DNA of 64,000 nucleotides, taken from positions 3,410,001 through 3,474,000 of the forward strand of contig OZ234494.1 in assembly GCA_965153455.1 (NCBI GenBank). The letters are read 5' to 3'. The translations under genes and the position numbers were made by a program. Positions 16,765-64,000 of this stretch are shown piece by piece (position 1 is the stretch's first letter; the number at the start of each line of letters is the position of its first letter). The notes below the pieces were generated by a model. That model searched no databases and was not told where the DNA came from. It saw only the letters and a program-made list of their open reading frames with translations. The stretch is from Sphagnum compactum. Taxonomy: Eukaryota.

Positions 16765-16862
16765 GGCCTTATCGGAAGGGAAGGCACCAATTGGTGGTCC
16801 GGGAGATTTATATCCTTTGGACCAATCGGTGGTCCGGGAGATTTATATCCTTTGGACCAATC
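16765..16862 (-). promoter_or_regulatory. Lhcb6 upstream region: I-box-like GATAAGG and a perfect 2x35-bp tandem duplication containing GGATA/TATAAAT and CCAAT
   Basis: GGTGGTCCGGGAGATTTATATCCTTTGGACCAATC occurs at 16793-16827 and 16828-16862. CCTTATC (GATAAGG on the minus strand) at about 16767. Confidence 0.55.
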
Positions 16863-17489
16863 AATGGCTTAGTTGATGGGCCTCTGGGGGCCGCCGGGAA
16901 TTTGGCCCGGTGGTTGGATAAAGCAGCGGCCGTTCCCATTGGCTTCCTCAAATATTACTCTAAACCTTACTCGCGTTCGCCATCTAGTGAACAGTTTAGT
17001 TAGCGTTCCCTTGGTCCTCCAGTGCTTTCACTCCCTGCAATGGACAGGACATAGGACACAGGACACGATGGTCGAGCAGGAAGGGGACTGACTGGCCAGA
17101 CTCCATGCACTGAATAGGACATAGGACATCAAGATGGTCAAGATGGATGTTAACTGGTTAGCTGACAGTTTTCTGTTGGCTTCCAGTTTGCTAGCTAACC
17201 ATGGTGGTTACCTCAGTTGCTATGTTTTGTACTACTACTTACCTACCCTTGGCCCTGGGGATACTGCAGTTCACTGGGCAGGGCAGCACTTAACCCTGGG
17301 TTCCAATATGCAAAATAACCCAAAAACTTGGAAATATCTAACTTTTTTATTTTGATGAAAAATAATATTACAAATGATTGAAAATTCTAAACCATATCCA
17401 TTCTAAATGGCGGTGGTCAAGAATTACATTGAAAACATTTAAAATGGTAATAATCAAAGTAAAAAGGAAGAGCAAACACAATAAGATAT

Positions 17490-32233: not shown

Positions 32234-34065
32234 TCAGTTCACAGCTGAGCAAATTCTTCTCACTTCTCCATCTGATCCTAATTTGACTCCTACCCGACCC
32301 AATTTGAGCATAGCTGCAATAAACCGCTTGAAGAATGCATCTGTGTTTTGTGAGTACTCTGTTACGTAACGAGCTGTGTGTGGGTCAGCCACGAGTGCAG
32401 CATCTGATGACATCAATCCCTTACCTTGCAATAAATCTGAGTAGTAAACCTCATCAAAGGTGTTTGGAGTTGTTGGGTCAAGTGGTACAGATGACCCTGG
32501 ATTGAGTGGCTGTGGACACAAAGACCTGAGAGTCTGTCCGTATGCGACAGAGAGTGATGGGTCCATCCCATTGCTGCTGTTGTAGCCATAGAACCTTCTT
32601 GCCACCTCTGTGCAGTGAGCTCTTCCAAAAGTATGTGCTCCTGGACAACAATATATATATATATATACAAATCCAAGCTCCAATCTTAGCAGACAAACTA
32701 TGACAAACTTCAACATGCAGGAAAGTCAGGTACAAATCACAATTGGAAGAGACAGTCGCACGATCTGCAATCGATCATCCTTCAATTCTTGGAAATTGAA
32801 TTTGCTACAAAACCGTAATCCAAGTCTATGGGTCAAAACACTTTGGGTACTAACTCGTGTTTGTTTGCTAAGAATTAGACATGTGAACATCCAGCGCTTA
32901 CCAGATAGTGTGACCATGTCACGGGATGTCAAGCCAAGTGCAGCAAAACTGGCAACGAGTGTTGCAGCATCGGAATGTGATGAAGGTAGTAGAGCCTCAG
33001 CTTCTGCAGCAGATGACACAACACCATCCTTTCGTCCCAATTCCACAATCCAATCAGGTCCTCCTTGCTGGAAAAAAAAAAGGTCCATGAGACAAAAAAA
33101 ACTATGCAAGTCCAGGATTGGTTGGAAAAAAGAGTATGAGACAAAACCATGTGAGGAGGATTTGCTGCAAAAAAGTCCATGAGACAAATACTATGTGAGG
33201 AGGATTTGCTGCAGAAAAGTTCATGAGACAAAAAACTATGTGAGTACGATTTGCTGCAAAAAAGTTCATGAGACAAAACACTGTGAGTACTTACCTGGAA
33301 AACAGCATCTTTAGCAGCAAGAGCTATGATGTCAGCACATGAAACAATGCCAGGGCAAACAGCTTCCACCTGACTCTTGATCTCATCTACAATATTGAAT
33401 CCCCTCAAGGTTTGGTTGGGGATTGCATCTCTCTCTGCCGTGTTGTTTGGAGTGGACTTGATCAGAACTGATGCATCACAACCCTGCACAAACAAATCAC
33501 ATGAAACTGTGCATCAATTTACTTCCGGGTCAACCTCATGGGTGTCTGTCATGATCCATCTTGCACTAAGCAGGCTATTGAGAAATTGCAATAGCTCAGT
33601 TGGGCTCCCCCCTAAAGTATATAGGATAAGGGAAGTCAAAATTAGAATGGTAGGAAATAGAGGCTGTTGCAAAATCAGAAAATCACATTTGGGTAGTCTT
33701 ACATTAACAGCACAATCGTGGAAGAACATGCGCACAAGAGGAGCTCCAGCTGTTGGGTCCTGTTGGATTTGGCTTGCGACCACTGATGCGGTGATTTGCT
33801 GTAAACTAGGGCATGAGGAGTGATAGAATCTAGTATCCAGTTTCGTAAGAGTCCCATGACTCCTAGGACTCCTCACAGCTTCTTGGGATTCCACACAGCT
33901 GCAAAACAACAGAATTCCAATAACCAACCAAAGAAATTCACAACCCTGGAACTTTACTGAAGAAGAGCATGCAGGCCGAGCTTGCAGTAGCAGCTGTTGT
34001 GTCTTCTTGCACTCATGGGGCACTACGTTGTGTCTTCGGCACATTGAACTGCAATTCAATGCCAT
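32234..34065 (-). CDS. Class III secretory plant peroxidase. Exons 34065-33703, 33483-33295, 33067-32902, 32640-32234
   Basis: Distal motif [39 protein letters not shown], and proximal motif [16 protein letters not shown]. Canonical 4-exon class III peroxidase layout, ending [11 protein letters not shown]. Confidence 0.95.
33083..33290. repeat. Tandem repeat (about 45-bp unit, 4-5 copies) filling peroxidase intron 2
   Basis: CATGAGACAAAAAACTATGTGAGGAGGATTTGCTGCAAAAAAGT-like units. Confidence 0.8.
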
Positions 34066-34453
34066 ATTGATCAAAACTTGCATTCTTCTTGCTAGAGTTC
34101 CCAGCTACCAAGTCTTGTCAGCTCTGTCTCTCTGTCTCTCTCGGTCTCTCTCTCGGTCTCTCTCTCTCTCTCTGGACTCTGGACTCTGTGTATGTGTGTC
34201 TCTGGATGTGGGTTTCATATGCCAGATCTCTCAGGCCTTGATCAGCAGCTGTGAGGTGGAGTGTGCAATGGGCACTACTACTAGAGTCTTGGAGGAAATT
34301 ATAACTCAATCCAGCAATGATCTGTATCTATCTGAGCTGTTTTTGACAACCAAGAATTCAAGGAGGTCTTCTACAAGATTCAAGAGCATCTGAGATCATG
34401 ATTAGCCTATATGGTACAATGTACACTAGTGTTGTGTCTCTCATGAGTTTTTT

Positions 34454-35760: not shown

Positions 35761-36859
35761 CTTGGTGATATGAATTAATGAAATTAAGTTAATTACTACC
35801 TTAGTATGACAAGAAAATGGAGGAAGAGAGAGAGAGAGAGAGAGAGAAAAAAAAAAGGGAGGGGAGAGGGGGAAACAAGTTAAGAACTAATTGGGCCAAA
35901 CTTGTGAAGAGTATTGTACTATGTTTGCTCTCATTGTGTAAGTTAGCTTCTCAATCAAGTCATCATTAAATTGGATGCCTTGAAGAATGAAGCAAACACC
36001 TGTTTTGGAAGAGGTAGGTAGAGAGAGTAGTACTACAAGGGCATGCCAGGTCTAGCCAGTCTGGCCCTAGTCTGGCCTTTGTACTTTCCTCCTACCTTTC
36101 TTCCCCATCCCCTAACTAACCCATGTAAGGGGGAGTTAGTTACATGCCAACTAAGTCCTCTACCCCACCCCAAACCCTAACCCTAAATTTTTATTTTTAT
36201 TTTAAAACGACTAATTCAAATTCTAGAGAAAGGGAAATGAACAATGAACCTTCAGAAAATTTGCACATTTTAGGGTGTTATGCATATTTGGGGAGATGGA
36301 GATAATTGAGAGTTCAAGTTTAAATAGGGTTTAGTGTAAAGCAAAAACAACTATACACAATATAACCTAACCCTACCTATAACTTTTTGAAAACAACTAA
36401 CTCTATTGTGAAATTTGATACTTACAAATTTAAGTTTAGGATCTGCACTTATTATTCAAGGTTGTTTTGGATTTTTGACATAACCAGGCTTCTTTTTGGT
36501 TACATTCCATGAATCTTTTGTGCACTCTCACAATCTCCAATTGGAAAACAATGGGTACTTCAAATTGTGGGACAATCCCATTGGATTTTTGGGCTTGTCG
36601 AATTGTCTAAATAATTCCGGAATGGCAACATATTTCTTTATTATTTATACAAGAAATATATTCCCAAAAAGGGTATATGATAAGGGTGTTCAAACCCTAT
36701 CGTAAACCCTAAACCTTAAATTTTTTGTATACTCAAAATCTTAATGTAATGGAAAAACTTGGGTGGTAATAATTATTTTATCCTATGGGTAAATCAAAAT
36801 TTTAAAATTTTGGGCTCCACACTAGTGTGCACTATTAATAACAATCAACTAATGGAATT

Positions 36860-38900
36860 TTTGTTTGTTGTCTTTTCTTTTCTTTTTGCGCAAATTAAGT
36901 TCCATTTGACTGAAAATATTGAACAACATTGCATGCAACTTGAATTATATTCAAATTTAGTTGAAAAGGAATGGGAAGCAAAATTGGTGTAAAAATTGTA
37001 TAATAATTCTACTTGTGTATTATCGTTGAACCAAAAAAGAACTTTGAAAAAACGTAAATTTAAAATGCCACTTTTAATTCCATTCCTCTTTACTTGACAA
37101 GTAAACAATCACTCAAAATTATATAAAAAATTTATGAGACTATATCAAAAACAAATTACTTGCACAACATTAGTAGATACTAAAGAAATGTAATGAATGC
37201 AATGCAATCCTTTAGTGTTCTTTTCTCAAAAGCTTGTGATGTAGTAGTCAAAAGTGGGTACCATCATCCATAAGATGATTTAACCAAATTTTGGCTATAA
37301 ATGCAATATGAAAAGTTTTTAAAATAAAGCATCCACCTATTATTGGCTACTTAGAGTAACCTAGTAATGAAAACTAATTATTCAAATTTCTTTATTTTTT
37401 AGAGAATTGGTGATTAAAACCTCAAAAACAAACTTTTTCACATTTTCTATTCTTAAATTTCACAAGATTTTTTTTTTAAAAAACTTAAACATTTTTTTTC
37501 AATCAACTTTGGTACACTCCTATGTTAATGGATTGTTAATGGCCATAAGTTTTGATCAATTAAAGGTTGATGTTTGGTTTAAGGCATATTCATAGTGACC
37601 TTGGCAAACATGCATAATGTATTTTCAAAGGCACCTTACAAGGCACAATTCCCTTGCCAGCTTAAAACAAGAGGTTTCTTGTAAGAAAAACATAAAAAAT
37701 AATTATAAGCTAATATGGGTCATCATTGTTGTGCAAATAAAGTTTGTGTAAATGCATTTGGGCCTTTGATCATTATGCAAGTCAAATTTATATTTTAAAA
37801 AACCCCAAAAAAAATAAATAAATAAAAATCCCAAGCTTTTGCTTGAAAAAACAACAAAAAAAATTATCCCCCCAAAAAAAACCACAAGTATGAGTGTGGG
37901 TTTCTATTCACTATTGTTGAGCACTAATAGTGATGATCAATTGATTAATTGATGACAAAAAATGAATTGATTTTACAAAAAATCAAGTTCCATTTGAATG
38001 AAAATATTGAATGACATTGCATGCCTTTTGAATTCAATTCACATTTAATTTAATTTAATTTAATTTAATCCAAATTCCTAAATTCAATTCAAATACATTG
38101 ATTGGAACTCCCATTCCAATTCAACAATTGAAATTAAGATTGAATTGAATTGAAATGAAATGCAAATTGGTGGAAAAGGTATGGAAAATCTCTTTGTGAA
38201 TATGGTGTTGAAAACAAAAACTTTAAAAGTACATAGATCCAAAAAGACGCCTTTCCATGCCTCTTTACTTAGGAATGGGCTAGACATATTCCAATTTGAA
38301 ACTATCCAAATGATGACTTTAGGTTTATGGAACTTAAAGTTGTCCTACTTAAATCAATTCCGATGAATCGTCTTCACTAAAATTGTGTAATTTGGTATTG
38401 AAGTTATTTTCACATGTCTTTAAAATTTTAAAAAATAAAACAATGTAATTCTTAACATTTAAAATTAAAGAAATTATAAATTTTTATCAAATTATGGAAA
38501 ATAATCTTCATAATTAAATAAAACTTTATAATTTTTTTAATTTTAAATGTTAAGACATTACATTTCTAAAAATCCTTTGGGTGGGCTCATAAATCCAAAT
38601 TAACAAATTTTTAATTGAGTTAAATATTTTAATTGAAAATTAATTTAACATGAAACTTGCTGGAATTCATGGCCAAGGGGGAAATTATGGATTTAAATGG
38701 AATTTATTTCAATAGTCCAATTAATCTTTAAATTTTAACTTGGGTTCCACGCTACCAATGACAATGAAATGATAAAAAGAAAAAAATTATTTTGTGAAGA
38801 TTCAGTTCCATTTGAATGAATTTGCATAATGCAACTTGAATTCAATTCGATATCCTAAATTGAATTCAAATCTTGCATTGAATTGAATATTTGAATTGAA
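36860..38900. repeat. Three fragments of a dispersed AT-rich repeat (about 36870-36990, 37960-38390, 38800-38900)
   Basis: Shared GTTCCATTTGAATG...ATGCAACTTGAATT-like core followed by AATTC/AATTG-rich tracts. Confidence 0.55.
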
Positions 38901-41900
38901 CACAATATTCTTCTTTTTTGGATTCAACATAGTTAATGTTTATGAGCATTAGTAATTTACAAGATCTACATTTAAATACACAAGAGAAAAAATGGTAATT
39001 AACTTGTTAGAAATTAAGGAGAAACTTATGACTAAATTGTTTGACTCCAAGGAAAAAGTTTCCAAATCGGAACAATAAAATTTCTAAAGTTACAACATGT
39101 CTTTTCTAATTATACATATAAAAGATTTGAAATGTTTTTTACAAAAAAAAATTCCATCATAATATTAGTTTAGGATGTTTGTAAAGACAACATGTGTACA
39201 AAGACAATGCCACACCCACGTTGATTTAATGGTTTTTGATTTTGCATTGAACATTCACCTAAACCATGTAGTCTGCATGGACAACATTATACACATATTG
39301 TTTTAATGATTTTTTACTTTGCATGCAACATTCACTAAAGATGACAATGCACCTATAATGTTTCACTATTTTTTCACTTCACAATGAACATTCATAAAAA
39401 TTGTGTGCATTGACTTTGAATTGAATAATCACCTAAAACATGTTTCCAAAGACAACGCTCCACGCATAATGTATCAATGGTTTGTGATTTTGCATTAAAC
39501 ATTCACATAAAGCATGTTCACATACACAACACCACATCCACACAAACTCTAAATAGATTTCATTATAAGTTCTTAGTATGCTTAGATTTAGTATTATACA
39601 ATAGACATTTTGAGTCAATGTTGTTAACCATATGTGTTCTAAATGTTAATTTGCAAAACTAAAAATTTATGATGTAACTTTCACCTACCATCCTACAACT
39701 TACATATCTACCTCCAACCTACCTACTAATTACCTATTTAACCACATAACTAATGATGTGAAATAAAAGGACTTGACAAAATTTGTAATATTATTATGAA
39801 AATGTGGTATATCGGTTAAGGACTTGATTTATTTTTGTGAATGTATGAAAGGTTCAATTCCTTATACTTGTAACTTTATGTACATGTTTAGGTGTTAAGT
39901 TAAGCATGTTCAATTAAAATAGGTATGTTAATTAGCTATCACCCACCTAAACCAATTTACACTATTACATGAGATGGTTTTGATGTTGGTTTATTTGATT
40001 GAAATTTGAAATTTGTGGACAATGGACAAAAATGTCCTTAGGTAAACAAACCAATTGTTTTAAGCAAAAAATTAACTAAGTTTATTTCATTGAGATGACT
40101 AAAACCAAAAGTTGACATCGAAATACTAACTTAATTATCAAAAATAAAAATAGAAAATTATTTTCAATTCATTTATTATTGTTATTATTATTTAAGATTG
40201 AATTATGGAAGAATCTAAAACATGATCAACTTGACCTATGATTCTAACACCCAATTTTCTAGTTCTTTCTATTGAGTTGATTACCAATAGTTAATTGAAC
40301 CTACAATAGATCTTCATTATCATAACATGTCCAAAGTGAACTTTGAAACCCTCACCTACTTGGTCCCAATTTACAACCTTTACCATTCCACCACCACTTC
40401 ATGTGGTGATTTTATCACAAAATATATAAAAACACAATTTTTTTAATGTTACGATTTCATAATGACACTAGTTACACATTTACATCTTTAATGTCATTAT
40501 TATTTTTTTAAGTTTTTGGTTTGATATTGAAAATTCTCAAATGTTTTTTAAATTCAAAATGTAAAATGTATTACATTAGTTTTTCAGTATATTCATTTAT
40601 AATTAACTAATTAAATGTATTACTTGATTCAATCATGTAATCCTTAAAATTCACCAAAAAAGTAAATTTTTATTTTTATTTGGAAAAAAATTCAAATATA
40701 ATTATTGTATTAAATTTTACTTTAAAAATTTTCATATTGAAAGGAATTTCACTTCTGAAATTATATAATTCAAATTCACATGTCTTTAATTTTATAAATG
40801 TAGTTAAAATTTAAATCTAAAAAATTGCATTAGTTTAAGTTTCATATGTACATTAGTTATGTTCAATTTTGTGCAATAAATTAAAATAAAAAACTTCAAT
40901 TTGGTCTTCAATTTTCTCACATGTCATTTTGTCGTATTTCGATTTGTGTGCCCTATCTTTATTTTTACATGAAACAATACAAACAACAAATGAAAAGATA
41001 AAATTTGAGATTTACTTTCATTTATTTTAGTAATTTAGTTGAAAAATTAATGAAATGATATTTCTTATTATTTTAGTATTGTTACCTCACCAAAAGTAAC
41101 ATTATAGTTGCAATTAATCATATCTAAATGATTAATTTCAATCCCATTAATCAAGTCAAAAAATTCCATGTGGGTGCTATATATGTCATGCATCCAACAT
41201 ATTTTGCGTTTAGACTATATAATTATTATTTTTCAATCAAAATGGACATACCTCATGTTGATTTTAATCAAATTGAACATAGTCAATCATTTCGTAAAAA
41301 TGGACTTGAATCTATAATCAAAATAATCATAATGCCCCTAATGAAAAAACCATGTTTTTATATAATGTTATTACCTAACTACTTAATATTTACACCAAAA
41401 AATATTTAAATTTAAAATGATTTAAAGAAAATAAAATTGGGTATGGATTGAAGTAGTCAAATGATTTGTTGTTTACTAATCACTTTGACTAATCAAATGG
41501 TTCATTATCCACTAATCAAAAAGATCATCCTAATCACAATAGACATGTTGAAAACAACTTTTCCACAATGACTAAATGGTATTTTTTGACAGCTATCCAA
41601 ATGGGATTTTAAAAAACTAGATTCTCTAGTCAAATAAACCCAAAATTCTAATAATGAAATCTAACCTAGGAAATAATGTACTTGCACAAGTTGATGTCAT
41701 TACCCCATTTGCATGCAAAACACACGAAGGGCAAAGAAACATTAGTAGATTACTTAGAATTGCATGTTGTGATGTTTGATGAGTACTTAGATTTTCTAAA
41801 AAAAAATCATGGACAAGGTAGGAACATAAAAAATAGAGAAGCAAAATAGAAGGAAAGGGAGGAACGGGGTTAAAAAATACTAAAATTCCTTGATTGTGGT

Positions 41901-42936
41901 AGAGTTAGTAGCTCAAATAATAGTTTCAAAAAATGTGATAGGATGGAATTTGCTTTGGCTTGGTTTATAGTAACTTTCAAGGAGGTCGGAGACCTCTTTC
42001 ACCACAACTTTCAAGCATGCTTATGAACACATCCATTGGGGTTTAGAGGTGTAAACCATGGAATCATAATAAAAGTTCAACAAGAAGTCATGCAATGAGC
42101 AAAAACTAGAATGTGAGCATGAGGCCATATGTTAAACCATGGAATTTGCCAACCTAGTTACCATCAAGGAAAAAGGTTGTTGGATAAAGAAAGGAATAAG
42201 AAAAAAAATGAAAACACATGAAAGTAAGACTTGTTTATTGTTTGCTTACCATCCTACAGCAACTACCATCCTATAACAGCTATCATCATGTAACAGACTT
42301 GAAAGAATACCCACAACCACTTGCGGACCTTTGATAGTTGTTGTCTATCGTCTACAACACTTGCAGACCTTTTGTAGTTACTACCTACCATTTGGGACCC
42401 TTTGTGACTATTGCCTATTGTTTGCAACAATGTTACCTTCCCTATAGACCTCAAATATCATGTCTACCTCTTTGTTGTTGCCTTTTAGTGGTAACTACCA
42501 TCCTATGGTAGAAGGTAATTTGTATTCTAGAGAGAAAGAAGAAAGAAAGAATATCCTATTGCTCTTGTAGAAGAAACAAAAACTATTACATAACAAAACA
42601 TTATGCAATCTTAATGTGTACTACCTTCCCCAACTATCTAGCATCCTCCAAGTAAAACAAAATAAAAACAATATGATATGTTTTCAACCATTTTCCATTG
42701 CAATAATCAAAGTACAAGATATTCCATACTTTCTACCTCTATCTCCAATGTCACATACACACTTTGTCCCAAGAGAACTCTCCTAACCACATCTAATCAA
42801 GAATCATATTAAGGAATGATTCACAATCCTCCTTTTTAAAGGATAAATAAAGAACCCAAAAAGGATATTCACCACACAAGGGTTGAATCCTTATTTTCCT
42901 AGATTTTTTTATCTTTCTAAATCTCTTTATCCTAAT

Positions 42937-45431
42937 CAGGCCTCTCTATCTACGGAACAATCCCTATGTTCCGTTTTTCAATAAAATATGGCGCGCTACA
43001 GAAATAAAATATGGAATATACGGAATTTATTCAGAAATCTCTTCTATCATTGGCTTTCATTGCTAATTCTTCAGCAAAGAGCGAATCTGACGGCAGTGTA
43101 AGATCCCTTCAAGTGAAAAAGGAGTAATATTCGATCAGTGTAGATCCTTTTCCCATTTCAAAACTGAGAAATCGCTTTCAACGGTGGCCGTGTCGGGGAA
43201 AGGAAAAGCCAAGCCCCCACAGAACTCCATTAGCTTAGGAAATCGGTCCTTAATGGATGGGGTCTTCCAAGCGTCGCTGAAGTCTGTCTGCTCACTGTGA
43301 CGAGCCAAGGCAGTTTGGAGCCTTGGCTCCTTGCTGACGACATTCAGAAGCTTCTTGTGCTGATCCACAATCAAATCAATGGAATTCTGAGTCAAGGAAA
43401 CCGACAGTCGATCGTGGAATTTCAGGACTAACTAAACGACGTCGCGTGGTTTCAACGCTAGCAGTTCGTGCGGCAAGTAAGGAGGCATGCCATCGGTACT
43501 GGCGTCGTTCACTTCGTCGCGCAAAGCCTCGACTGAGCTCAACCCGTTGACGATCGACAGAACGATTTCGCCAACGGCATCCAGAACTTCAGTGCATTTT
43601 TCTGGCTCTAGCGCATCAAGAATTTGGCTGGCGAAGATGCCCTAATCTTGAATGAATCCCCTTAGGTCAGCGTAACTGACCTGCCTCTCCCCAATAACGA
43701 CGACGTCCTGCACGGCCGGTAAAGTGTCATCATCGGGAGTGAGTTCCACGAAAGCAAAACGCTGTAAAGAATCCAGCAGTGATTGAACGGCAGCCGTTTG
43801 CTGCTGTAAAGTCACCCGCCGGCCTTGCAAGCTCTCGACGCACTCACTAACGTGCGTTGAGATCTCGCTAATGACAGAGATCAAGATCCAGAAAGCAGGA
43901 GTTGGAAGCTGGTCAAAACGATCGGATGGTTCCGTTTCAGCAAAATATGTTACAATTTCCGATCGCTTCTCAACTAGAAATCGAGCAACGCACGACATAG
44001 AAGCCCACTGAGTGGCTGAAAGGTTCGGACAGATGGCTTGCATTTCCTCAACGAGGTTCTTCTGGCGCCTCAAGAACGAAATAATGGAGGTAAGCGTCTT
44101 GTAAAAGTTACAACCTACTTGCTTGTAAACCTTCTGCATAATGATGTCTATTTAATGCAACAGACACCACATTCGCATGAAGTTTGGCTTCACAACGTTT
44201 TGGATCCGTGTCACAACTCCAGAAAGATGCCCAGTCATATTTGCTGCCCCGTCCGTAGAGCAACCAATCAACTTGTCTTTCCATAAAGGACAAACAGCGT
44301 CAAACAGTTTCTCAAACATCTCGAACGTGGCCAAGCCAGTGTGCCGACCAGCAAATGGGAGAGTAATCAGATGAAGGTTTTCCAGAGCAGAGTTCTGATA
44401 GTACCGAATGCGAACATCAACCCAAGAGGTTTGCTGAAGGTCGGTTGACGTGTCAAACGCCACTGAAAACGCCCATTTGCTGCATAGAACTTGCGAAATG
44501 TGTTTAATTGAAAGCTCACATGCAATTCTGGCGTAGGAAGCAACCAAGTAATCACTACAAGCGCCGAGCTTTGGAATGTCGCAAACCTCTTTTGCATCAT
44601 GAATTGCATCTGCAGCCATGGCAAACGACATTCCACGTCCAACATAACGTGTCGCTAGCGAGAATTGCTTTGACTTGGTGATCTCTACGAGATAGCTACC
44701 GTCTTCCTTCCGTTTAAAAAGAGACAATGCGTTTTCACGTGTTTGCCCTTCCATGTCGGTTGGATGCCAGAGCATGTCGCCAATCACAACATCAACGATG
44801 CTGCTGCTGACGGTCAATTGATAGCTTCAGATCGGGGCTCGATGTAATGGCATATAGTTTCAGCGTGCTTGACAGCGACGTCGAAATATTTCGATTTCTC
44901 CTGATGTGCCAGCCCTTGGTATTCTTCCCATCGAGTTTTGTGATTCAGGCGAAGGTGCTGCGTGTAATTATCGGTTCGAAATGGAGGTCCTTCGAACGTC
45001 CAAATCGTCAACGATTTTTTAGAAGAGCCTTCGCGACCAAAGCATATGCAAAATTGGCAGCGGACAGCAACAACTTCAGAAGACATCGGGTCGCGGGCTG
45101 TAATGGAAAGTCCATATTGTATGGCATGTTTCGTCTGGAAGGGCGTCTTGCGAGCTCCAGCTTTGCAGGGACGCTTCGGAGCAGGCTCAGAGGTCTTCAT
45201 CGATCGAGCAAGAATGCAGTAAATGGCAAGGGAACGTCGTTTGGTGATCCGGAAATGCGCCACGGACTTTCAAAACTGAAATAAAGTTTTTTTTTTATAC
45301 CGTTAAAAAACGGCACCCTACGAAAATGAAATACAGATTTTTTTTGATACCGTTAAAAAACGGCACCCTCCGAAAATGAAATACGGAACTTACGGATTTT
45401 ATTAATAGATTTTCGTATATAGAGAGGCCTG
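42937..45431 (-). mobile_element. Full-length hAT-superfamily DNA transposon, 2495 bp
   Basis: TIRs CAGGCCTCTCTATCTACGGAA and (reverse complement) CAGGCCTCTCTATATACGAAA. Perfect 8-bp TSD ATCCTAAT at 42929-42936 and 45432-45439. Subterminal 2x60-bp direct repeat near 45290-45385. Confidence 0.95.
43063..45200 (-). pseudogene. Disrupted intronless hAT transposase, about 712 codons
   Basis: BED-like Zn finger (RCQFC...QHLRLNH), catalytic-type motifs VAFDTST, CSTDGAANMTG, CxxH (WCLLH) and TATVESDFS, and C-terminal FSLEGILHCRQ. One frameshift near 44815 and stops at 44152, 43642, 43432 and 43135. Confidence 0.9.
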
Positions 45432-48400
45432 ATCCTAATCCCTTACATACATCATAATTAAAATAAATCCACCCATCCCTTATCCATTTAGATTAATTAA
45501 CCTGAATGACTTCACCCCTTAGTAAATAGAAGATGATAAGTAGGATATTTACCACTAATAACTAAATAATTATTGGGATGCCCTTCTAAATGAATTAAAC
45601 AAGGATATTATTTATAATAACAAATATTATTTTTATTATAATTTTTCCTAGAATCAACTTTTGATTATTTTGCCCCATGAAGGTAGTTCACTGTATTAAC
45701 AGTATTATCATCAGAAAACACTTTCACTCTAGAATTCTCCTGAAATTATTTTGCCATCTGATGGTAACTACCATCTAATGAAGGTGCTACTGTCTTTTAA
45801 CACCCATGGTGTTTAATCAACATAGGACAATTTACTATCATTAACACCATATTTTAGCAATGTTGCACCTTTCTAATTTCTAACTAAAAGAAAAGGGCAG
45901 TGGGATAGGGGATCAAAACTAAGATTAAAACCTTAAAAACAATACTAGGATCAAAAGTTTAAGATTGTCAAAAGGACTAGGGCTAGGATTGACAGCTCAA
46001 GAGTAGGATGAAAATAAAGATATGAAACATTGATACATATGACATTGACATTTAATATTTAAATCTTGTGTGTGTGTGTGTGTAGGGTTTAAATTATACA
46101 TTTTGGGAAATTCATTATTTTGATGTTCAAGTTGTTTTGTGTTTAAAAAGTTTAACTTTTAAGGATTGTTATGTTTAAAGGTTCGAAGGTTTTACAATTG
46201 TAATATCATTTATATAAATTACAAGGTTCAAAATTGTAAAACTTTAAGGTTCAAATATGTCACATGATTATGTTTAATTCCATTTATTTTATATATACAT
46301 TTAAATATTCAACTAAACAAGTTAGATTACAATTATTCTATGTGACTAATTTTTCAATAGGTTAATAGGTAGTTTTTTTGAATTATTATAATACCATTTT
46401 AGAATTTCACTAATATTTTAGCAATATTTAATTCTTGCATTTTTTAATGGATGTGCTTGTTCACCTTTGCCAAGCAACACCCACATTCATACCATTGTGG
46501 AAAAAGTAAAACATCATTTATTGTTTACTTACTTAAAGGTTACAAATATCTAGCCCTTTAACAAAAAAATAAAACTTACCTTGTGGCCTTATTGCCATTT
46601 TAGAATCATCATTAATTGCACCTGAACCAAAAACAAAATAATTTTCCAAATGGTGTTACACAAACAAACAATCAAAAAAAATTACATCACCACTAATAGT
46701 CTAAAAAACTTTAATCACCATCATTCAAAGCAACTCCTAAACCCACTCCTTCATAACCAACCCTTAATGTGGCATTTGCTTGCATCAGCATTGTTCAATA
46801 AACCAAAAAAAAAATTGTGCTCAAAACCATTTTTCAAATACCTCCTAAATAGTTGAACCATAATTACATATTTGATTTACATCAATACCGTTCAAAAACA
46901 CTGGAACTCACATCACACATGTATCGCCATCTTCAAATTATCATCGCAATCAACCATTAACAAACAAACAATGTATAAACAAAAATGTTCAGAAGTTTCA
47001 AGCAATAGGGGTCAAACGTCTTGCTTTACACACACCACAAACAAAGAAACAATAAACAAAAACATGCACAAAAAATAAGAATAGTAAGTTCTTACAAGCA
47101 ATGGTCTCATGGGATTCCAAAACCTTGCTTATCACCACCATTTGTGACTACACAATGCCAAAACATTGAATTTAAGACACATTTTGAACCTCCACCCAAA
47201 CCTATAAGGGCAACCAAACCCCAAACTAAACTCTAAGCCAAAATGAACCAAACATTTGTGAATGTCAACAAGTCAAAAATCAAATTAGTTTCCATGTTTG
47301 AACAACTCATGCTCCTATTAATAATCTTCTTCCTACTATGCTCCACTTCAAGCTCCTGATAGAGTTTTTCGAGCTCCTTTCACATCTCCCTTTTTCATGA
47401 TCCTATCCTAGCTCAAATGGATGTTTTTTTGCATTTTTATTTTGGTTCCTCTTCATGATGATCCTCTTGCAAGTTTGAGTGGTGGATGAAGGTGCTTAAG
47501 TAGGTGATATTGATGCTCATCAAGATCCTATTTTGTTTCCTTTTTTAGTGAGTCCTATTGATTTTTTGGAGCTTGATTTTGTCCTTGTCCACTTAATACT
47601 TTTAAAATTTGATTTCCTCTTAATGTTATTTAATTTCAATGTCCAACCTAGTCCTCTTAATGCTCTTGAATTTCAATATCCTTGTGATTTTCTTGAGTTT
47701 TTATTTTGCTTCTAGCCCCCTTGGGTGCTCTCGAGTTTTGGTTTATACTAGTGTTCTTGAGGTTTCAATCTTGGTCTTAGTCCTTGTCTCGCTTTTGAGG
47801 TTGAATATTAAGAATCACTTGCCTTGATGACTACATTTTCAAAGAATCCGTAAAATAGAATATGTAAATGAAAAAATAAAAATTTGTCAAATGTTTGCAT
47901 AATACATTTTGAATATTAATTGTTGTAAAATTTCATTAAAAATTTCAATGTCAACTTAAGTAACCAATCACCAAATGGAAATTAAGTAGTGGTTACATCT
48001 TGCAATGGCTCCTTTTACCCAATTTGAACCCATTTGAATATGGTTTACAAAATAAAATAAAATAATGAGAGTAATGAATCTTTAAACTATCCATAAATTA
48101 AAATTGGCACATAAATAAGTAAAATTTATTATTTATTAAATCTTAAATGTCAATGGCATGCATATTATAATGTTATAAGTATTATAGGATTGGAACAGTA
48201 GTATGTTTAATTTTGGTCTATATGATGATTTTGTAATTCATGGTATGTAATAAGAACCCTAGATCTTTTAGGTCTACAACCAAATCCTAATAGATCAATA
48301 TGTTATTTATTAAACCCCTAAAACTTCCTTACATATAGGCAAAACTTATATATTTAATGAAGTTATGTACTATAAATATGGTCCTAAAGGCTATAACCAA

Positions 48401-49810
48401 GGGAAAGTTATAATTAATTAATGTTATGCAATAATTCCCTAGAATTATGGGCAACCAAAAGTCAAAACATTATTTCACAATAATTGAATCTATTCACAAC
48501 TAATACATTAAATCTTTAACGCACATGCTATTTTTTTTAATAAAAACATTTATATATTAGAGATTTGCACATACCCTGTATTATTATAATTTTACTTTCA
48601 AAATATACATAATCCCATTTTTGAACTAATAAACTTATAACTTATACTCAACAACCAATATATTGCACTTTATATTTTTACTCGTGTATTTTCTACTTTT
48701 TTCGAATAATGTCCCCTTGGAATACCAGTGTATCTTTAGAACTCATGGTGGAATAGGTAGTAGAATTGTACATTGTACAAAGAATGTTATATCTTTGATT
48801 TTTGATCTTGTTTGCATAAACATTATATAGAGTTTGTGAAATTTTATGACGATTAAATAATTTGCAATAAAACCCACAAGGAAAGTAAAGTTAGGATTAT
48901 CTTGGAACTTAGAAGTTAAAATTACAAATGTGACACCTAAGAAATGATTAAAACCTATTATAAATCTTTAAACATTTTGAATCCTTAAGCCTTAAAGGTT
49001 TGAATCAATGTATATGTTTTGATTATTTGGAGTTACAATGTGGAAGCTATTGAATATTGAACCATTTTTTCAGTGAAAACTAAATAAAATTGAAACTGAA
49101 AATGATATTGGAATTTGGGGGCGTTCTTGGGGGTTGCTGGAAAGCCCTGAGCGAGTCAAATTTAATACAGTTTATTTCATAATTTTCAAAGCTAAGGTGT
49201 AAAAGGTATTGATTTTTGGGTGGATTTTGTTGTTGGAAATTCTAACAAAGTGCAAAAAAAATAAAATTGGGTTTGGAATGAAAAACCAGTTGAGCCCTCA
49301 ATGTGTTCACACTTGGGCCAACAACAGCACAGGCTACACTATGATTCATTATGACTTCTTAACATTATGGTTGTTAAAAATAATAATTTCATGGGTGTAT
49401 TTTATTTCTAAATATTATTATTAGATATAACTTTTGTCCTAGGACCCTCTCGGGTTTCATAGTATAACTTCTTGCTGGTTTAGTTGCAGAGCTTGAGATT
49501 TGGTAGTAAGTTGCACCTTGCAAGACTAATACACTTTGTCAAACAACATTAAAATACAAACAAATAGGGTTGATGGATGTATCATGGATACCTTGATGCT
49601 TCATCCATTTTGTGGATGGGGTAATAAATGCTCAACCTTCAACATTTGACTTGATTTCTTGTTACACATGACAAATGTATCCAATGTTGAGCTTGTAGCC
49701 ATGTGTTTTATGATTGATTTGGAGGGCCATATGTCCCCCTTATCTCTTAACCTTTTGGAATGATTTAAAAAGCTATACAAATGCAAACCCATTTGATGGT
49801 CTACTTGTTA

Positions 49811-50210
49811 GAGCCATTTGGAGGGATGATGATGCTCAGTATGTGACACTGCAAAAATATTTTTCACATCCAAGTTTAGTTATTTGCTTTTTTGCAGACC
49901 TACCCATCATCAAACGAGGTAAGGCACTACTAATAGCAAACCAGCTGGACCAATCATTATGATGGGCAAATCAGAAAAACCCTAAACCCACTGAGCAAGC
50001 AGCAGTGAGATCATATTCATTACGCTCTTTTCTGCAGGTGCACAGCAGAGTTGCAACTCTAGTTTGTAACAAACAGCCACCACAAACTGTGCAATTATGC
50101 GGAGCCAAAACCATCGTCCTGAGCCAAACGGGGCAGATTTTTTTTGACTTTTCTTCATCCAATTTTATCTGCACAGGATCGATCACATACTGAGCACCAC
50201 TGGAGATGCT
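49811..50210. mobile_element. MITE-like element with about 30-bp TIRs (left one decayed)
   Basis: Left TGCTCAGTATGTGA (about 49833) is the reverse complement of right TCACATACTGAGCA. The right end ...CCACTGGAGATGCT reads AGCATCTCCAG on the minus strand. Interior similar to 26560-26868. Confidence 0.65.
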
Positions 50211-57452: not shown

Positions 57453-60400
57453 TTAACCTGTGTTTTGCATGCCTGCGGCAATTCCCTTCATGGTAAGGAT
57501 AAGTGTGTCCTCTAATCCTGGTGGGTATGCAGTTGTGGTATTCAATGTTACCAACTCAGATGAGACCTTCCCGGAGTTCAATCCCTCCTGAACTGCATTG
57601 TCATTGTTCTGTGTACAACTTGAAGACCGCATTTTCTTCAAACTGTATGCTTGCTGCACGTTGAGAGGAGTAATGTAGCGATCTCGTAGTTGCAAACGTT
57701 GTTTCAATGTGGGGTTTCCCTCTAACACATCCTCATGTCCAGCAACCTGCAACATAGTTCTTGTTACACCAATGGGCTATAAGCCAGAGGTAGAACCTAC
57801 AATTGCATTCTGGATCCAAATTTCACCACCCAAAAGAAATCAACATCAGACACAAACGCTGACACTTGTGGCAAATAACATTTTCCAATAATTCCACCTG
57901 ATTGCTCTTCTCAGCAATGAAACTGTTACCTGTAACAACAGAGCCCTAGTTTCATTGTACTTGCATCTCAAGTCTTCGCCAAGATTCTTGAGCTTTTCTT
58001 GATCTACAAGGAGATGGTCATAGAGTGCAGCAATTCGAGGATCACCTTTAGCAAACACCATCTCAATAAGATCAATAGTCACCCGGAAAAATGGCCATTC
58101 ATCATACATCTTGCGGAGTATTATAATGCGAGTTGAATCCCTTTCCAATACATGCTTCAGTGCACCACCAAGTCCCAGCCACACTGGCAGATGGAACCGG
58201 GTTTGTGTCCATGCAAAGATCCAAGGAATGGCACGCAGTGCTTTGATGCCTCCTTGGGGTTTCCTCCTTGAAGGCCGACTACCAATGTTCATGCGACCAT
58301 ACTCCTGCTCTGGTGTGGACTGCCACATGCAGCACAACACATTTGGGATGAATATCATTGTCAGTTTACTGATCAATGCTGGGAAAGACCAGAAATGTTT
58401 GCAGATACAAGATGTCAATGTAATGCAATGAAGCACTTGTAAGTTTGGAGTTAAGAGATAGGAATATCACAGCATTGTCAATGGAAAATTTCACTGTCAC
58501 ACCATCATGGACAAGAAGTTATCAATTGCTTGGTTTTCTGTCTCTTGGGTGGAGTGATCTCACAACTTCCTCCACATTTCTTTGAGTTCTTCCCTTCAAA
58601 TAGAGGCATGCATAATGACATTGTACATCTATAATGTAACCCTGAAATAAAAAGCTCAGGAACAGATTTTACCGCACGAAAATAAGGCACAAAAAGGGGG
58701 TTCTCAAATACTATTGAGCGGTATTCCTCAGTTGCGACCACAGCCATATCATCCATCAAACTACGCCATACTGGTTTAGGAGCAATTGGTGGGTGCATGC
58801 CATGCTCAAGGGTGGCTGCTGTAAAGCGTTGTAGTGTCCTGAAACACAAGTTTTCTTCCCCAAAAGATTGTTCAATGACTTCTCCTTGAATGGTGACACG
58901 CAGTGACCCATTGACTGTGTCAGGTGGTTGTGACAATATGGCAAGATGTGTGGGACCACCACCCCTGCCAACAGTTCCTCCACGTCCATGAAACATGGTC
59001 AAATGGACTCCATACTGTTTAGCTACTTTCACAAGATCTTCCTGGGTCTTAAACATCTGCCATGCTGCTGACAACCTTCCAGCATCCTTCCCTGAGTCGG
59101 AATATCCAATCATCACCTGCACCCAGGGGGAGAAGAAGACAAGACTAGAGGAACAAAATTTTTTTTTGCATTCACAGCACTTACGGAGACATTCAGAAAG
59201 GTAAGCACATGCTTCTTAGTTGTATTGGTCTGTGTAGCTGTGAAGCACTGATCTGGTATTCTGGAAACTACATATGCAACTTAGTTGAAGTGGGCAAGGG
59301 AAGAATGTCCCACCTCCTGCTTCCCATCAATCCGACTTAAGTACCAGTCAATGGAAAAGAGACGTGACATTGAAGCTGAAGCAGACTCCAGATCGGCTAG
59401 CTTTTCAAACAAAGGGACCACTCGCAAGGGCTTGGCAACTAAACATTCACGCTGCAATAGCTCAACAACAAGAACATCTGATGGTGTTGTTGTCATAGAG
59501 ATGACATAAGCCCCAAAGCAATCAGACGGCATCTCAGCAACTACTCGCAAGGTGTCCAACACATCTTTGATCTCAGCAGTCATAGGTAGGTCGGCACCAA
59601 AGAGTGGACGCTTGCCACAGAGCTCAGAGATCAGCCATTCCTGGCAACATGGATCAAACAACCACCACATGACATGTTATTTCTGAGCATCCTGTGCAAC
59701 AATGCTAAAGATGTCATAATAACTGCCAGTGAATCTGACGTGCCTCTAACTGAAGAATTCTTTGCTTGCTATACAGGAGTCCAACGCCCACGTTAAGAAC
59801 ATCTCTAACTGAGGTCTTGCAAATGTTGTCAGTATACCTGCCGTTGTTCTTCAGGCCAGTCCCTGTATGAACCAATGCCAAGATGGGTGGTGATGGTGTC
59901 CATGACATCAGTGTGCCGTTCAGACTCCTGCCGAATGTCCAGCTTCACTAGGCTCAAACCAAAGCATGAGACCTGACGCATGAAGTCCAACAGGCTACCA
60001 TCTGCAATGGATTTATCACCAGTCTCACAGAGTGATCTATAACACAGCTCCAAAGGCTCAAGAAACTGCAGTGTACAACCAAGCATTCCCAAGAGGAATT
60101 TGTTTAGCAGCACCAAGATTATGTAGAATTTCAGGATTCAAAATATCTATGTGGAGAGAGTTCAGGGCCAGCAATAACCAGAAAAACCAAAATCCTTGAA
60201 AATTAGCAATTCTCTTGGCCTCTTTGAGGTCCTGTTGTTGTAAGGATATTTTGTGTTGGATGTGTGATAGTATTGTGAAGGGGTGGGAATGATGATCTTG
60301 TTTGTAAGCGAAACACCTGTACATAGAAAGATTAGAAACTCATGCCATACATGGACTAGTACAAAACGCCTTAAAATTTTTCCCTCCCCATGGCCTCAAG

Positions 60401-63362
60401 ATTGGGAGGTGCTGTTCCACAGACACAGAAACATCAGTAAATATTTTGTTGTAGGTGCTTATTCAGATTTTTCAAATGACAATGATCAATTGAGTTCGAC
60501 ATGATGGTGGGAACCTCACCTGTCCCACTTTAGTGAAAGTTTCTTCCACAGGGATCTCACTCTTTCCACTGGCCAGCAGCTGTCGCATGCGCTCACGGGT
60601 CTGGTAGAGCTTGTCACGAATATCTGCTAGTACCACTCTGAAAGGTTCAGTGGCTGGTATTGTCTTCCAAAATTCTGCCACCAGGAGTGTATTCCATCAA
60701 AATCTTCCAAATAAAACTCACAATCAATAAGTCTCTCTCACCTGTAGACCCAGATGAATCAGAATTCATTATCAAGCTTTTAAACGACAGAACTTTTTCC
60801 ACACAAATGGATTCGATAAGTGCATACACACATCAGGATATTTGACTTATGGAAAACCTGGTTGGTAACAGTTCACAGCAAGAAACCCTGGAGGGAGGGG
60901 AGCCAGCAGGCCCCAATTAATGAGAGAGTAATGGTTCACAGGAACATTTTCACTTGAGGGTACTAATGTGCTGCACAGAAACATAGGTGTATGTGATCAA
61001 GATACTTTACCAATGAAATGCTTGGCCTCTTTCTTAGTGGATACCTCTAGCTGGACAACCCTGGCACGGAGTTCCTCACTGCAACGCCACATTGATAACT
61101 GCAAAACCCACCCATCAAGTTGCATTTTGTTTGTAACCAGCTCTCAGGCTGCTTGTGCCAGCCGCAAGGACGCAACCATAATCATGTCCATTCAAAGTGA
61201 TGAATCTACCATAAGTTTTATCAGCTGTGGTGAAGAGTTTAATACAGCTTGTTGATATCATATGACAACGTTTAGTTAGCAAATATCAAGATTGAGGGAG
61301 AACATCATCATATGCAAAAAAAATCATATCTTTGCCTCATAAATAGTTTGGATTACTTCAGCAACTATGAGAAGTTACTGCTGCTCAACCTCAAACATGA
61401 GATCTTCAATCTGTCCAAAGTAGAGATTTGCTGCCATTAGTCTTGCCAGAAGACAAACATCTCTTGTGACCTCTGGGGTGACTTGGGGATTCCCTGCAAA
61501 ATGCTCCATACCAAGCAGGCATATAAGCTGAACAGTGTTCATTCCTGACAAGCATCTCCAACAGAAATGTTCTGCCCAACTGACACACTTTTTTGATCAG
61601 AAGGAGCTTTGGAACACTGAATTGAGTCAGTAAACCTATAGAATGACAAGTTCCAGAAACATAATTCCAAAACCACCAATGAATAGATTTTTCTATAATA
61701 ACAGAATTAAAAAATTCATCTACACCAACTGTCTTGAGATCCATGAAGCAGCTCATTGAGAGGTAGAATGCAAAGAGATTCACCATCACGATCACCACCC
61801 ATCCAAGAGGAAAATTGAATAAGGGGTACATTGTATGGCAATCGCTCCTCTAGACCAATGGTTTTAAGAGCAGTGTCAACACGGCGCAGGAACGTAGGCA
61901 GTCCATTCCAGATCGTCTCGTGAAAGTAACTCATGCCAGCACGCATCTCATCCTGAGGTGTTGGTGGTGCCCGTCGAATTTCATCTGTTCGAAATGCTGC
62001 TTGAATCTGAATTCATCAACCGAAGGACGATCATATGCAAAACAGCAATTGCCACCAAACAGGTATGACAGGGACGTGGAAACTACAAATCATCAGCTCA
62101 AGTACTGAAATAGGCCCAGCTTGTGGGTTACAATGTGAATACACACATTGGACAGCCAAAGAACACCCCCCATAGCGAATCCTATCATTTCTAGAGTAGG
62201 ATATTCTACTGATAAACTGGTGTTTCCACATCAAAGGCAAAGGCACAATCTTCAATCTTCCCTGCATGTTATAGGACATCATCTCTATGACATTGCAGAG
62301 ATTAATCACAACAACAACAAAAACAATTGTTGAAGGGGTAACATGACAATTTGAGTGTGGCAGTCATAACCTCTATGAGAGAGAAAGAGACTTTCCACTC
62401 ACAAAGGTGTCAGACCAGCCATCATCACCTTCTTCATCATGAATAGCATCGATAATAAGCTGCCATGACTACCAAGCACCTCTGACTTCCATCAGCTCCT
62501 GACAGTAGGTGGGTGTAATAGATGTCATTGCACAACATGTTGCAACATCATCAACCTTTCCAAATTCATGGCTTTACATAAATGGGTTGGGTGTAAACAT
62601 GTTGCAACATCAGCCTTAACAATTTCAAGGCTTTACATCAATGCGCTCTTTGCATCTAAACGATGGATCCTGTCATGTGAAACAGCCACATCCGCCATCT
62701 ATGCCTAACAAAAAATTATACCCTACTCCACTTGCAAGCAGGATATCGAGCTTCATTGGCATCGTGGTTTACTTATGGGAATGCCTAGTTGATGTTGGAG
62801 AATGTTGAGAATTCACAAAAGAAAAGAAGAAGATTCAAAGGCACAAGCAAGCAAAGCAAAAGCCAAGCCAAGCCAAGCCAAGCCAAACAAGCAAAGGATC
62901 AGATGATCTCCTACCTCACGATGAAGAGCCTCATCCAGTTCCTGCCTCTCGTCACTGGTAATGTCACTTTGGTGTAGTTGTGACAAGCAACTGCGAATCC
63001 TGCCATCATCATCATCATCACCATCATCACCCAAACACAGTTGTTGAGTGTTCATTGGCAACAAAAACTCTTTCAAGCTCTGAGCTTGCTTGCATGCATA
63101 CGACTATCGCCTGGGATTGCCAACAAAACTCTTCAAGATCCAAGCTTTCTTGCATGCATGCTACTATTGTCTAGATTGCCAACAAAACTCTTCAAGATCG
63201 GAGTTTTCTTGCTTTCTTGCTTGCTTGCTACTGGTTTGTCTGCAGACTTCCTTCCTAGTGAAATGTCCAACACCTGCTTGAACATCCATTCCAATTTCCT
63301 ACAAAGCTTCTTGCCAAGAGTGCTGCAGCAGAGTGTTGTGAACAAGCTTCTGCTTCTTCTTA

Positions 63363-63416
<54 letters not shown>

Positions 63417-63874
63417 GAGGAATGAGGAGGCATTGGTACACACACACACCGGGTGTGCTTCTGAAGCAAAGATCGGCGAACGGATTGCGTAGGATGCGCA
63501 GTAAGCACCAGATCGACAGTCTGATTCTTCAAGGCATGGAAGATCTCAACAGGACTCTTGCCGAGTTGGTTCACCAAGCGTCGGAAAGTCTCTTCCAAAT
63601 CCGACTCGGTGAGTGCACTGTTCTCGTCTCCGATGTCGCCTTTCTTGGCCTCCTGCTTCACGCGTCGCCGGTCCGCGATCTGCACTTCCTCCGCTAAGTT
63701 CGCCAAGTTGAGCAGGTGCGAGAAGGAACTAGCCACCAGTATGGAGTCTCCTGCGTCCAGCGCGTTGAGAAGCTCTCCCAGTTGTTCCAGTTTTCGGAAA
63801 TCCCCCGCTCCTTCTTGTTCTCCATCATCGTTGATCTTGCTATACATCCCCGATATCTCGTAACACTTCTGCAC
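57453..63874 (-). CDS. PPC: Plant-type phosphoenolpyruvate carboxylase, C3-type (first exon outside the window). Exons 63874-63450, 62999-62915, 62006-61784, 61493-61390, 61098-61011, 60674-60520, 60065-59838, 59640-59314, 59116-58673, 58319-57930, 57746-57453
   Basis: [62 protein letters not shown] and C-terminal [11 protein letters not shown]. Exon sizes 85/223/104/88/155 match plant PEPC genes as I recall them. Confidence 0.97.
63053..63215. repeat. About 60-bp tandem repeat (about 3 copies) in a PEPC intron, with a (GT)n(GA)n microsatellite nearby at 63367-63414
   Basis: TTG(G/C)CAACAAAACTCTTCAAG...TTGCATGCAT-like unit recurs. Confidence 0.7.
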
Positions 63875-64000
63875 CTGCAACAACAATTGCATACAACCTT
63901 AGCGCAATTTTTTTGCATGCTCTTCTTCACATTCTTCGCAGTTTCTTCTTCATCTTCTATCGCCAAAAGCTGCACCTGCTCTTCTTCACATTCTTCGCAG

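Follow-up and report, generated by a model that had tools for sequence, protein, structure and literature searches.

A Decayed, Non-Autonomous Copy of a Compact, Intronless hAT-Superfamily Transposon in a Peat Moss Genome

The window considered here is a stretch of 64,000 nucleotides from the peat moss Sphagnum compactum (contig OZ234494.1, positions 3,410,001 to 3,474,000), and the element in question occupies positions 42937 to 45431 of it. With a probability of about 0.9, this element is one mutationally dead, non-autonomous copy of a compact, intronless, multi-copy DNA transposon of the hAT superfamily, lying in a Sphagnum-type moss genome. What the analysis shows is the structure, the boundaries, the family of copies, the decay spectrum and the fold. 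The first-pass annotation, made from the letters of the window, had described a complete hAT element, unlike Ac/Tam3, as a candidate for horizontal transfer.

Structure and Boundaries of the Element

First of all, the element is delimited by its own ends and by the duplication of its target site, which are given below together with the subterminal repeats.

42937..45431, minus strand (that of the transposase): whole hAT element, 2495 bp (ends, empty-site joint, 57 related metagenome loci)
42929..42936, no strand: left 8-bp target-site duplication, ATCCTAAT (read from the sequence; empty-site joint)
45432..45439, no strand: right 8-bp target-site duplication (read from the sequence; empty-site joint)
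42937..42957, plus strand: terminal inverted repeat at the 3′ end relative to the transposase, with a perfect 13-base core (repeat finding; same ends in 19 loci)
45411..45431, plus strand: terminal inverted repeat at the 5′ end relative to the transposase (repeat finding)
45273..45372, plus strand: tandem pair of 50-bp subterminal repeats, 90% alike, lying upstream of where the transposase begins (repeat finding)

The two copies of ATCCTAAT are identical, direct and immediately outside the element ends. The inverted arms (42935-42957 and 45411-45433) are 23 nt long and 91% complementary (21/23) when two flank bases are included, and in the element proper the outermost 13 bases are inverted without mismatch (13/13). 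These are the short terminal repeats of a hAT element (about 10-25 bp, starting with CAG or TAG), and the 19 loci of the family at which both ends could be read also start with CAG or TAG, each of them (19/19) carrying an 8-bp duplication as the window copy does. The 440 terminal bases hold four copies of the hexamer TACGGA, and the 2055 bases between them hold one. The GC content of the element is 0.467, versus 0.275 and 0.316 in the 5 kb on each side. The inverted ends, the perfect 8-bp duplication and the higher GC content than that of the AT-rich flanks, all of which had been claimed beforehand, were thus borne out by repeat finding, by the sequence itself and, for the boundaries, by the empty site described below. 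No second copy of the element was found within the 64-kb window.

Moreover, the form of the locus before insertion could be recovered. Logan contigs of four public runs were aligned to window positions 41500-46900, and contigs from two of the four runs (X10 and X8) join 42928 directly to 45432, skipping 2503 bases. Since 2503 bases are the 2495-bp element plus one 8-bp copy of the duplication, this is the exact pre-insertion form and an independent support for the boundaries. The shorter side of the empty-site contigs comprises 92 and 71 letters, and 9 letters can be assigned to either side. The empty site that the first-pass annotation had suggested looking for is therefore present as an exact joint in X10 and X8, and it may stem from another copy of the repeat that flanks the element. 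In run X4, whose unique flanks are identical to the window, no listed contig crosses either junction, and runs X10 and X8 have almost no cover to the right of 45844.

The element landed within an older, AT-rich host repeat, the two parts of which are as follows.

42043..42936, no strand: left part of the older AT-rich, multi-copy host repeat that received the element (contig depth; observed/expected CpG ratio 0.08)
45440..45843, no strand: right part of the same host repeat (contig depth; observed/expected CpG ratio 0.00)

In each of the four runs, the summed contig depth over these two parts exceeds that over 41500-42042 by a factor of 10-30. No other copy of this host repeat was found in the window or in the 57 metagenome loci.

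The Transposase Gene and Its Lesions

The transposase gene lies on the minus strand and is a pseudogene, with lesions at five places.

43063..45200, minus strand: intronless transposase pseudogene of about 712 codons (start codon ATG 45198-45200, terminal stop codon 43063-43065; colinear with the intact 734-amino-acid relative P0045, 88% over 584 amino acids)
44818..44819, minus strand: 1-bp deletion (frameshift), private to the window copy (extra G behind 44818 in 4/4 runs; base present in 12/12 other copies)
44152..44154, minus strand: nonsense codon 1, TAA (CAA in other copies), adjoining the CxxH motif, motif and stop together 44152..44166 (A>G at 44154 in other copies; Gln in relatives)
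43642..43644, minus strand: nonsense codon 2, TAG (CAG in other copies; public-run contigs, 13-copy alignment)
43432..43434, minus strand: nonsense codon 3, TAG (CAG in other copies; public-run contigs, 13-copy alignment)
43135..43137, minus strand: nonsense codon 4, TGA (CGA in other copies), after which the frame runs 23 codons further (contigs, alignment)

From ATG to stop there are 2135 coding bases, which with the one deleted base make 712 codons. The frame is colinear with the uninterrupted 734-amino-acid proteins P0042 and P0045, which supports the absence of an intron; the length of about 712 codons and the intronless state had been correctly read beforehand. The word "complete", by contrast, fits only the ends of the element, as the gene is broken by the four in-frame stops and the deletion. 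The frameshift near 44818 separates an N-terminal piece (44814-45269) from the remaining frame. At the four stop positions the relatives have Gln, Gln, Gln and Arg, and the public-run contigs of other copies carry a plus-strand G at 44154, 43644, 43434 and 43137; that is to say, all four stops are C>T changes on the coding strand. All five lesions are unique to the window copy in an alignment of 13 copies. In addition, the window copy has Gln in place of the family-invariant Arg of the RW motif. The window copy is unable to make transposase. A domesticated gene was also considered for this locus and was rejected, because the copy has transposon ends, a target-site duplication and a broken frame.

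Copy Family and Decay

Metagenome contigs were scanned with the intact relative P0045, and the 57 loci fetched in this way hold copies with 85-96% DNA identity to the window element. In the 19 loci with both ends, the 8-bp duplication is perfect in 16 and has one mismatch in 3; after removal of identical loci, 13 distinct insertions remain. The proteins P0042 and P0045 (734 amino acids, intact) and P0035 (775 amino acids, read-through) belong to the same 90% protein cluster, so that apparently autonomous copies exist somewhere. The search for further copies proposed in the first-pass annotation thus yielded the 57 loci and the intact 734-amino-acid proteins, while the intact autonomous copy that was to be sought is missing from the 13 full-length metagenome copies.

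The 13 aligned full-length copies differ from each other by 4.6-9.6% in pairwise distance, and most of the differences are private. When private substitutions are scored relative to the majority state of the 13 copies, the lowest number, 31 in 2495 bp, belongs to the window copy, where 26 of them are C>T/G>A; the other 12 copies have 64-104 each, with C>T/G>A making up 84-92%. By sequence context, the changes number 366 in CG, 305 in CHG and 216 in CHH, versus 318, 246 and 633 available sites, respectively. Such CG- and CHG-enriched C>T decay is the signature that would be expected for deaminated methylated cytosines in a silenced plant transposon. The window copy being the least decayed fits a comparatively late insertion, and the earlier claim that the element moved fairly recently finds some support in its 31 private changes and in the exact empty-site form in two runs.

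Several variants of the element were seen among the metagenome loci. The full-length copies fall into two length classes, 2441-2446 bp and 2495-2516 bp, and the difference maps to the subterminal region of the 50-bp tandem repeat (window 45273-45372; L001-L040; overlapping BLAST pieces). Derivatives with internal deletions measure 1062 bp (L054:2868-3929, also L055) and 2370 bp (L012:1471-3840, also L013), and one copy with an insertion measures 3163 bp (L019:2879-6041), all of them with the family ends and 8-bp duplications. Furthermore, L025:2780-5295 and L040:757-3270 share the same duplication and have flanks that are 95-97% alike, with copies 4.6% apart; this probably reflects a single locus present in two related genomes or subgenomes, the insertion then being older than their split.

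Motifs, Domains and Fold of the Transposase

The motifs of the transposase were located by alignment to relatives, with coordinates counted by hand.

44940..45059, minus strand: N-terminal CxxC...HxxxxH zinc-finger-like (BED-like) motif (C/H columns invariant in 40 relatives; beta-beta-alpha in the model)
44452..44454, minus strand: putative first catalytic Asp, AFD motif (invariant in the family alignment; role presumed catalytic)
44251..44253, minus strand: putative second catalytic Asp, TDG motif (invariant in the family alignment; shared with P0030, of the DUF4371/FAM200 type)
43177..43179, minus strand: putative catalytic Glu, TVESDFS motif in the hAT C-terminal region (invariant in the family alignment; aligned by profile search to SERTFS of Hermes in a weak second stretch)

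Across an alignment of 10 relatives, the D, D, E, CxxH and RW motifs are invariant, and the window copy keeps D, D, E and CxxH. Domain profiles gave a sparser result. The hAT dimerisation family PF05699 matches one of the 33 relatives scanned (E 0.0068), zf-BED matches neither the window copy nor any of these 33, and DUF4371 was not matched in the local Pfam scan of the window copy and the relatives. The BED finger, D-D-E and CxxH of the first-pass annotation are therefore visible by alignment to relatives, and no Pfam BED or hAT match at E<=1 accompanies them in the window copy. The UniRef name of the relative P0082 reads "HAT C-terminal di...", and PF27073 (FAM200-ZBED5 RNase-like, Buster-type) is precomputed in the database on many relatives.

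The hAT core is an RNase-H-like DDE fold interrupted by an all-alpha insertion domain. For the intact relative P0045, an AlphaFold model computed from an alignment of 40 sequences reached a mean pLDDT of 85.9, and in a Foldseek comparison of this model with the PDB the 11 best listed matches are all Hermes (E 5e-11 to 4e-8), over about 500-600 aligned columns, with TM scores of 0.50-0.68 on the target and 12-14% identity. The next matches are the ISCth4 transposase (3e-4) and then RAG1 (0.025). The Hermes-type fold was thus found on the intact relative and not on the broken window copy. By sequence, a profile of the 33 relatives matches the Hermes transposase with E 0.002 over the CxxH...RW region and has a weak second stretch at the C-terminal Glu motif of Hermes (i-Evalue 45); a single-sequence search of the PDB sequences gave a chance match only (E 0.41). 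The window protein also matches P0030, a protein with DUF4371, PF27073 and PF27046, with E 1e-6 at about 23% identity, and their alignment has the AFD, TDG, CxxH, RW and E motifs in common. Among the ESM Atlas neighbours are the FAM200, ZBED5 and GTF2IRD2 clusters, with scores of 0.90-0.93. Taken together, the Hermes fold, the 8-bp duplication and the ends that begin with CAG or TAG place the element in the hAT superfamily, probably on its Buster/FAM200/ZBED5 side and not with the Ac type.

Comparison with Known hAT Systems

With Buster elements (TcBuster, AeBuster and Mar, and the domesticated ZBED5, FAM200 and GTF2IRD2), the window element shares the 8-bp duplication, short terminal repeats starting with CAG, PF27073 on its relatives and the match to P0030 with its five motifs; it departs from them in the low identity to P0030, in the lack of DUF4371 in the local Pfam scan and in the target site treated below. 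Hermes (Musca domestica, an Ac-type hAT; PDB 2bw3, 4d1q, 6dww and 8sjd) is the best structural match (E 5e-11 over about 510-550 aligned columns) and the partner of the profile match in the CxxH...RW region, although the identity is low and the target pattern differs. The plant elements Ac, Tam3, Tag1 and Tip100 are likewise similar in their 8-bp duplication, short terminal repeats, subterminal repeats and DDE transposase, whereas PF05699, which is typical of them, misses the window copy and all but one of the relatives, and the window family has no intron. No protein search returned a named angiosperm relative, and the tree described below was taken without reference sequences of Ac, Tam3 and Tip100. 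The earlier statement that the transposase is not Ac/Tam3-like holds, as PF05699 misses the copy and the relatives carry the Buster-type PF27073. In the available parts of the literature on hAT and Buster targets, Sphagnum hAT elements and hAT phylogeny, no description of the window family was found, and it may have a name in Repbase or Dfam. The family is an addition to the known hAT superfamily, possibly with a distinctive target preference.

Target-Site Preference

For the target site, 33 distinct insertion sites including that of the window were compared, after two pairs differing by one base between the ends had been merged and one internal false match had been dropped; the tallies were counted by eye, with no background model or position weight matrix behind them. 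The dinucleotide AT stands at positions 4-5 of the duplication in 28 of the 33 sites, and in 12 of the 14 that were verified at both ends. TA is found there in two. By a rough estimate that was not computed, AT would be expected about once in 10 in such AT-rich DNA. The target consensus of Ac-type elements is nTnnnnAn; T at position 2 together with A at position 7 occurs in 6 of the 33 sites, the window duplication among them, so that the set as counted does not follow this consensus. Neither does it follow the consensus nnnTAnnn, with TA at positions 4-5, which PMC3517528 gives for Buster. The element family seems to have a target rule of its own, nnnATnnn, and a literature search turned up no paper on hAT target rules with nnnATnnn.

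Points Against the Reading

Several observations weigh against the reading given at the outset or limit it. No Pfam family was detected in the window copy (a search of its two reading-frame pieces returned 0 families at E<=1, with neither BED nor hAT domain), so that membership in the superfamily rests on the fold, the motifs and the ends. The window duplication itself is one of the 5 sites in 33 without central AT. All 13 distinct full-length metagenome copies are broken, with no open reading frame longer than 418 amino acids, and present-day activity in the window genome does not follow from them. Methylation as the cause of the decay is a deduction from the mutation spectrum. Finally, as the flanks are a multi-copy repeat, the empty-site contigs may derive from another copy of that repeat and not from the same locus. 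The same locus is favoured by three things: the empty-site contigs are about 2-4% different from the window, the single-copy left flank in X10 and X8 is similarly divergent from it, and the depth of the empty-site contigs is near that of single-copy sequence.

Relatives and Phylogeny

The named close relatives (61-92%) all come from Sphagnum, namely S. magellanicum, S. troendelagicum, S. jensenii and S. balticum, and the nearest relatives outside the window family have 43-50% identity. The wider clade is very large: when 1.84 billion representatives were searched with a profile, 10343 proteins reached E<=1e-3, and 1235 reached E<=1e-30. Its named members at 35-39% to P0045 include Batrachochytrium salamandrivorans and Globomyces (chytrids), Nothophytophthora (an oomycete), Fragilaria (a diatom) and protists of MMETSP and EukProt. 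The hypothetical proteins of Batrachochytrium salamandrivorans, Globomyces pollinis-pini, Nothophytophthora sp. and Fragilaria crotonensis are of the same length (about 690-730 amino acids) and show these motifs throughout; the tree puts them in one large clade with the window family, but in other sub-clades. For P0016 as well as P0045, the nearest large ESM Atlas cluster consists mostly of Oomycota (score 0.96). The resemblance to oomycete and algal proteins proposed in the first-pass annotation is in this way supported for oomycetes, with named relatives from an oomycete, chytrids and a diatom.

A tree of 47 rows was computed by a quick search, with support from the Shimodaira–Hasegawa-like approximate likelihood ratio test (SH-aLRT) only. 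In it the window copy groups with P0045 (99), then with P0033 (100), then with P0016 (99), and then with P0049, P0050, P0345, P0083 and P0094, and the chytrid/oomycete group and a group from Marchantia and Sphagnum fallax are placed elsewhere. A constraint that keeps the five named bryophyte rows in one group lowers the log-likelihood by 185 units (approximately unbiased (AU) test, p-AU 8e-83), this group having been picked after the tree was seen.

The Marchantia and S. fallax group is a second lineage of the same hAT clade, consisting of P0326 and P0327 (Sphagnum fallax) and P0332 (Marchantia polymorpha Mp_2g02130). Its identity to the window family is 28%. The two S. fallax copies hardly differ from each other, and between S. 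fallax and Marchantia 438 of 594 columns are identical (74%; about 85% when ungapped columns alone are counted), with some motif-breaking differences. Either this lineage is a domesticated gene that has been conserved, or it is a transposon passed between bryophytes. Besides, many relatives in Logan, ENA and JGI assemblies lie on contigs of about 2.3-3.5 kb, roughly the size of one element, which suggests that compact multi-copy elements of the clade assemble as stand-alone contigs in many samples.

Origin of the Family

Three origins have to be weighed for the element: contaminant DNA, transfer from another eukaryote and vertical descent. Contaminant DNA or a chimeric assembly would agree with the occurrence of relatives in fungi and protists and with the many related contigs from metagenomes. 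However, the element sits between plant-type genes within the 64-kb window, it is flanked by an exact 8-bp host duplication, its empty-site form is exact, chromosome-scale records of Sphagnum (15-27 Mb) carry annotated copies, and the CG/CHG decay spectrum is plant-like; this origin is accordingly very improbable. The reading frames of the window at 7758-10121, 15539-16868, 32234-34104 and 57846-63898 are taken to be, respectively, a Gln/Ser-rich protein with an OVATE-like end, a chlorophyll a/b-binding protein, a class III peroxidase and a phosphoenolpyruvate carboxylase.

The base composition bears on the other two origins. GC content as a foreign signature was rejected: the transposase region has 0.48, within the range of the host exons of the window (0.43-0.58), and the AT-rich flanks are a decayed repeat. 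The observed/expected CpG ratio of the coding region is 1.05, versus 0.29-0.87 in the host exons and 0.40 in the whole window, and this undepleted CpG is the sole compositional hint of transfer that remains, a suggestive one. It was further observed that the ratio is 0.18-0.23 in the AT-rich regions 36000-42000 and 45900-50000, 0.29-0.34 in some exons and 0.80-0.87 in others; depletion in both exons and repeats suggests gene-body as well as repeat methylation in the window.

The first-pass annotation, beside a patchily distributed family, had raised horizontal acquisition as a candidate. In its explicit form, the family would have entered the Sphagnum lineage from a microbial eukaryote such as a chytrid, an oomycete, a diatom or another protist of the peat moss, and would then have amplified, the window copy being a product of the burst. 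The patchy distribution of the named relatives agrees with this, as do the mostly oomycete Atlas cluster, the star-like private changes among the copies and the rejection of a single clade of named bryophyte sequences by the AU test (with the group chosen post hoc); among the named proteins, no non-Sphagnum plant is closer than about 28-36%, and the high CpG ratio suggests a lineage that spent little time in a CpG-methylating genome. Nevertheless, no donor was found, and the closest outsiders, at 43-50%, could themselves be plant sequences. Absence among named proteins is weak evidence, as plant annotations often mask transposon proteins, and selection on an active coding lineage can also preserve high CpG. 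None of the 40 pattern matches in viral contigs is a relative, and no vector was seen. Moreover, the sub-lineages at 85-89% DNA identity, the insertion shared by L025 and L040 and the named copies in five Sphagnum species mean that the family is not a very recent arrival. With no donor, a GC content like that of host exons, several sub-lineages, and named copies in five Sphagnum species, horizontal acquisition is neither established nor refuted, and such a transfer is considered less likely than not.

An old, vertically inherited resident of bryophytes or streptophytes, lost or decayed in most land plants and recently re-amplified in Sphagnum, is the origin that is slightly favoured. The very large, eukaryote-wide clade fits a great age, a second lineage of it is present in Sphagnum fallax and Marchantia, and several sub-lineages occur among the metagenome contigs. 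The points that tell against vertical descent are that the Marchantia/S. fallax lineage is not the sister of the window family and shares only 28% identity with it, that close members are seen in no named plant but Sphagnum, and that CpG is undepleted. A wider and still more speculative proposal, rated as unlikely, would see here a deep unnamed hAT clade (compact, intronless, about 2.5 kb, missed by PF05699 and with the central-AT rule) that moves between distant eukaryotes and reached peat moss from a peat-dwelling chytrid, oomycete or protist; the S. fallax/Marchantia lineage would then be another transfer.

Proposed Mechanism

On the model of hAT biology, a transposase of about 712-734 amino acids would combine an N-terminal CxxC...HxxxxH finger, an RNase-H-like DDE core, a hAT insertion domain (CxxH, RW) and a C-terminal catalytic Glu. 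It would bind the ends through the 13-bp terminal repeat and the subterminal TACGGA-type and 50-bp repeats, excise the element and re-insert it across an 8-bp staggered cut, with an apparently strong preference for AT at positions 4-5 of the duplicated octamer. After insertion, the window copy was presumably silenced by cytosine methylation; C>T/G>A changes would then have created all four stops, and the 1-bp deletion would have been added. As the ends are intact, an intact member of the family could still move the window copy in trans. The biochemical steps in this scheme are drawn from hAT biology, and the methylation-driven decay and the trans-mobilisation are likewise inferred.

Significance

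The window copy itself is an ordinary decayed transposon, and the family is of moderate interest for transposon biology. The central AT of its target sites differs from two published hAT rules; if it is confirmed, target choice would be a third diagnostic character among hAT elements, and there would be a small transposase at hand that integrates with another preference. The question of inter-kingdom transfer would turn on the source organisms of the nearest relatives. The C>T pattern at CG and CHG gives a direct read-out of transposon silencing in a moss, and the family shows that a hAT lineage very different from the Ac/Tam3/Tag1 elements of flowering plants exists in bryophyte genomes, with relatives in chytrids, oomycetes, diatoms and other protists.

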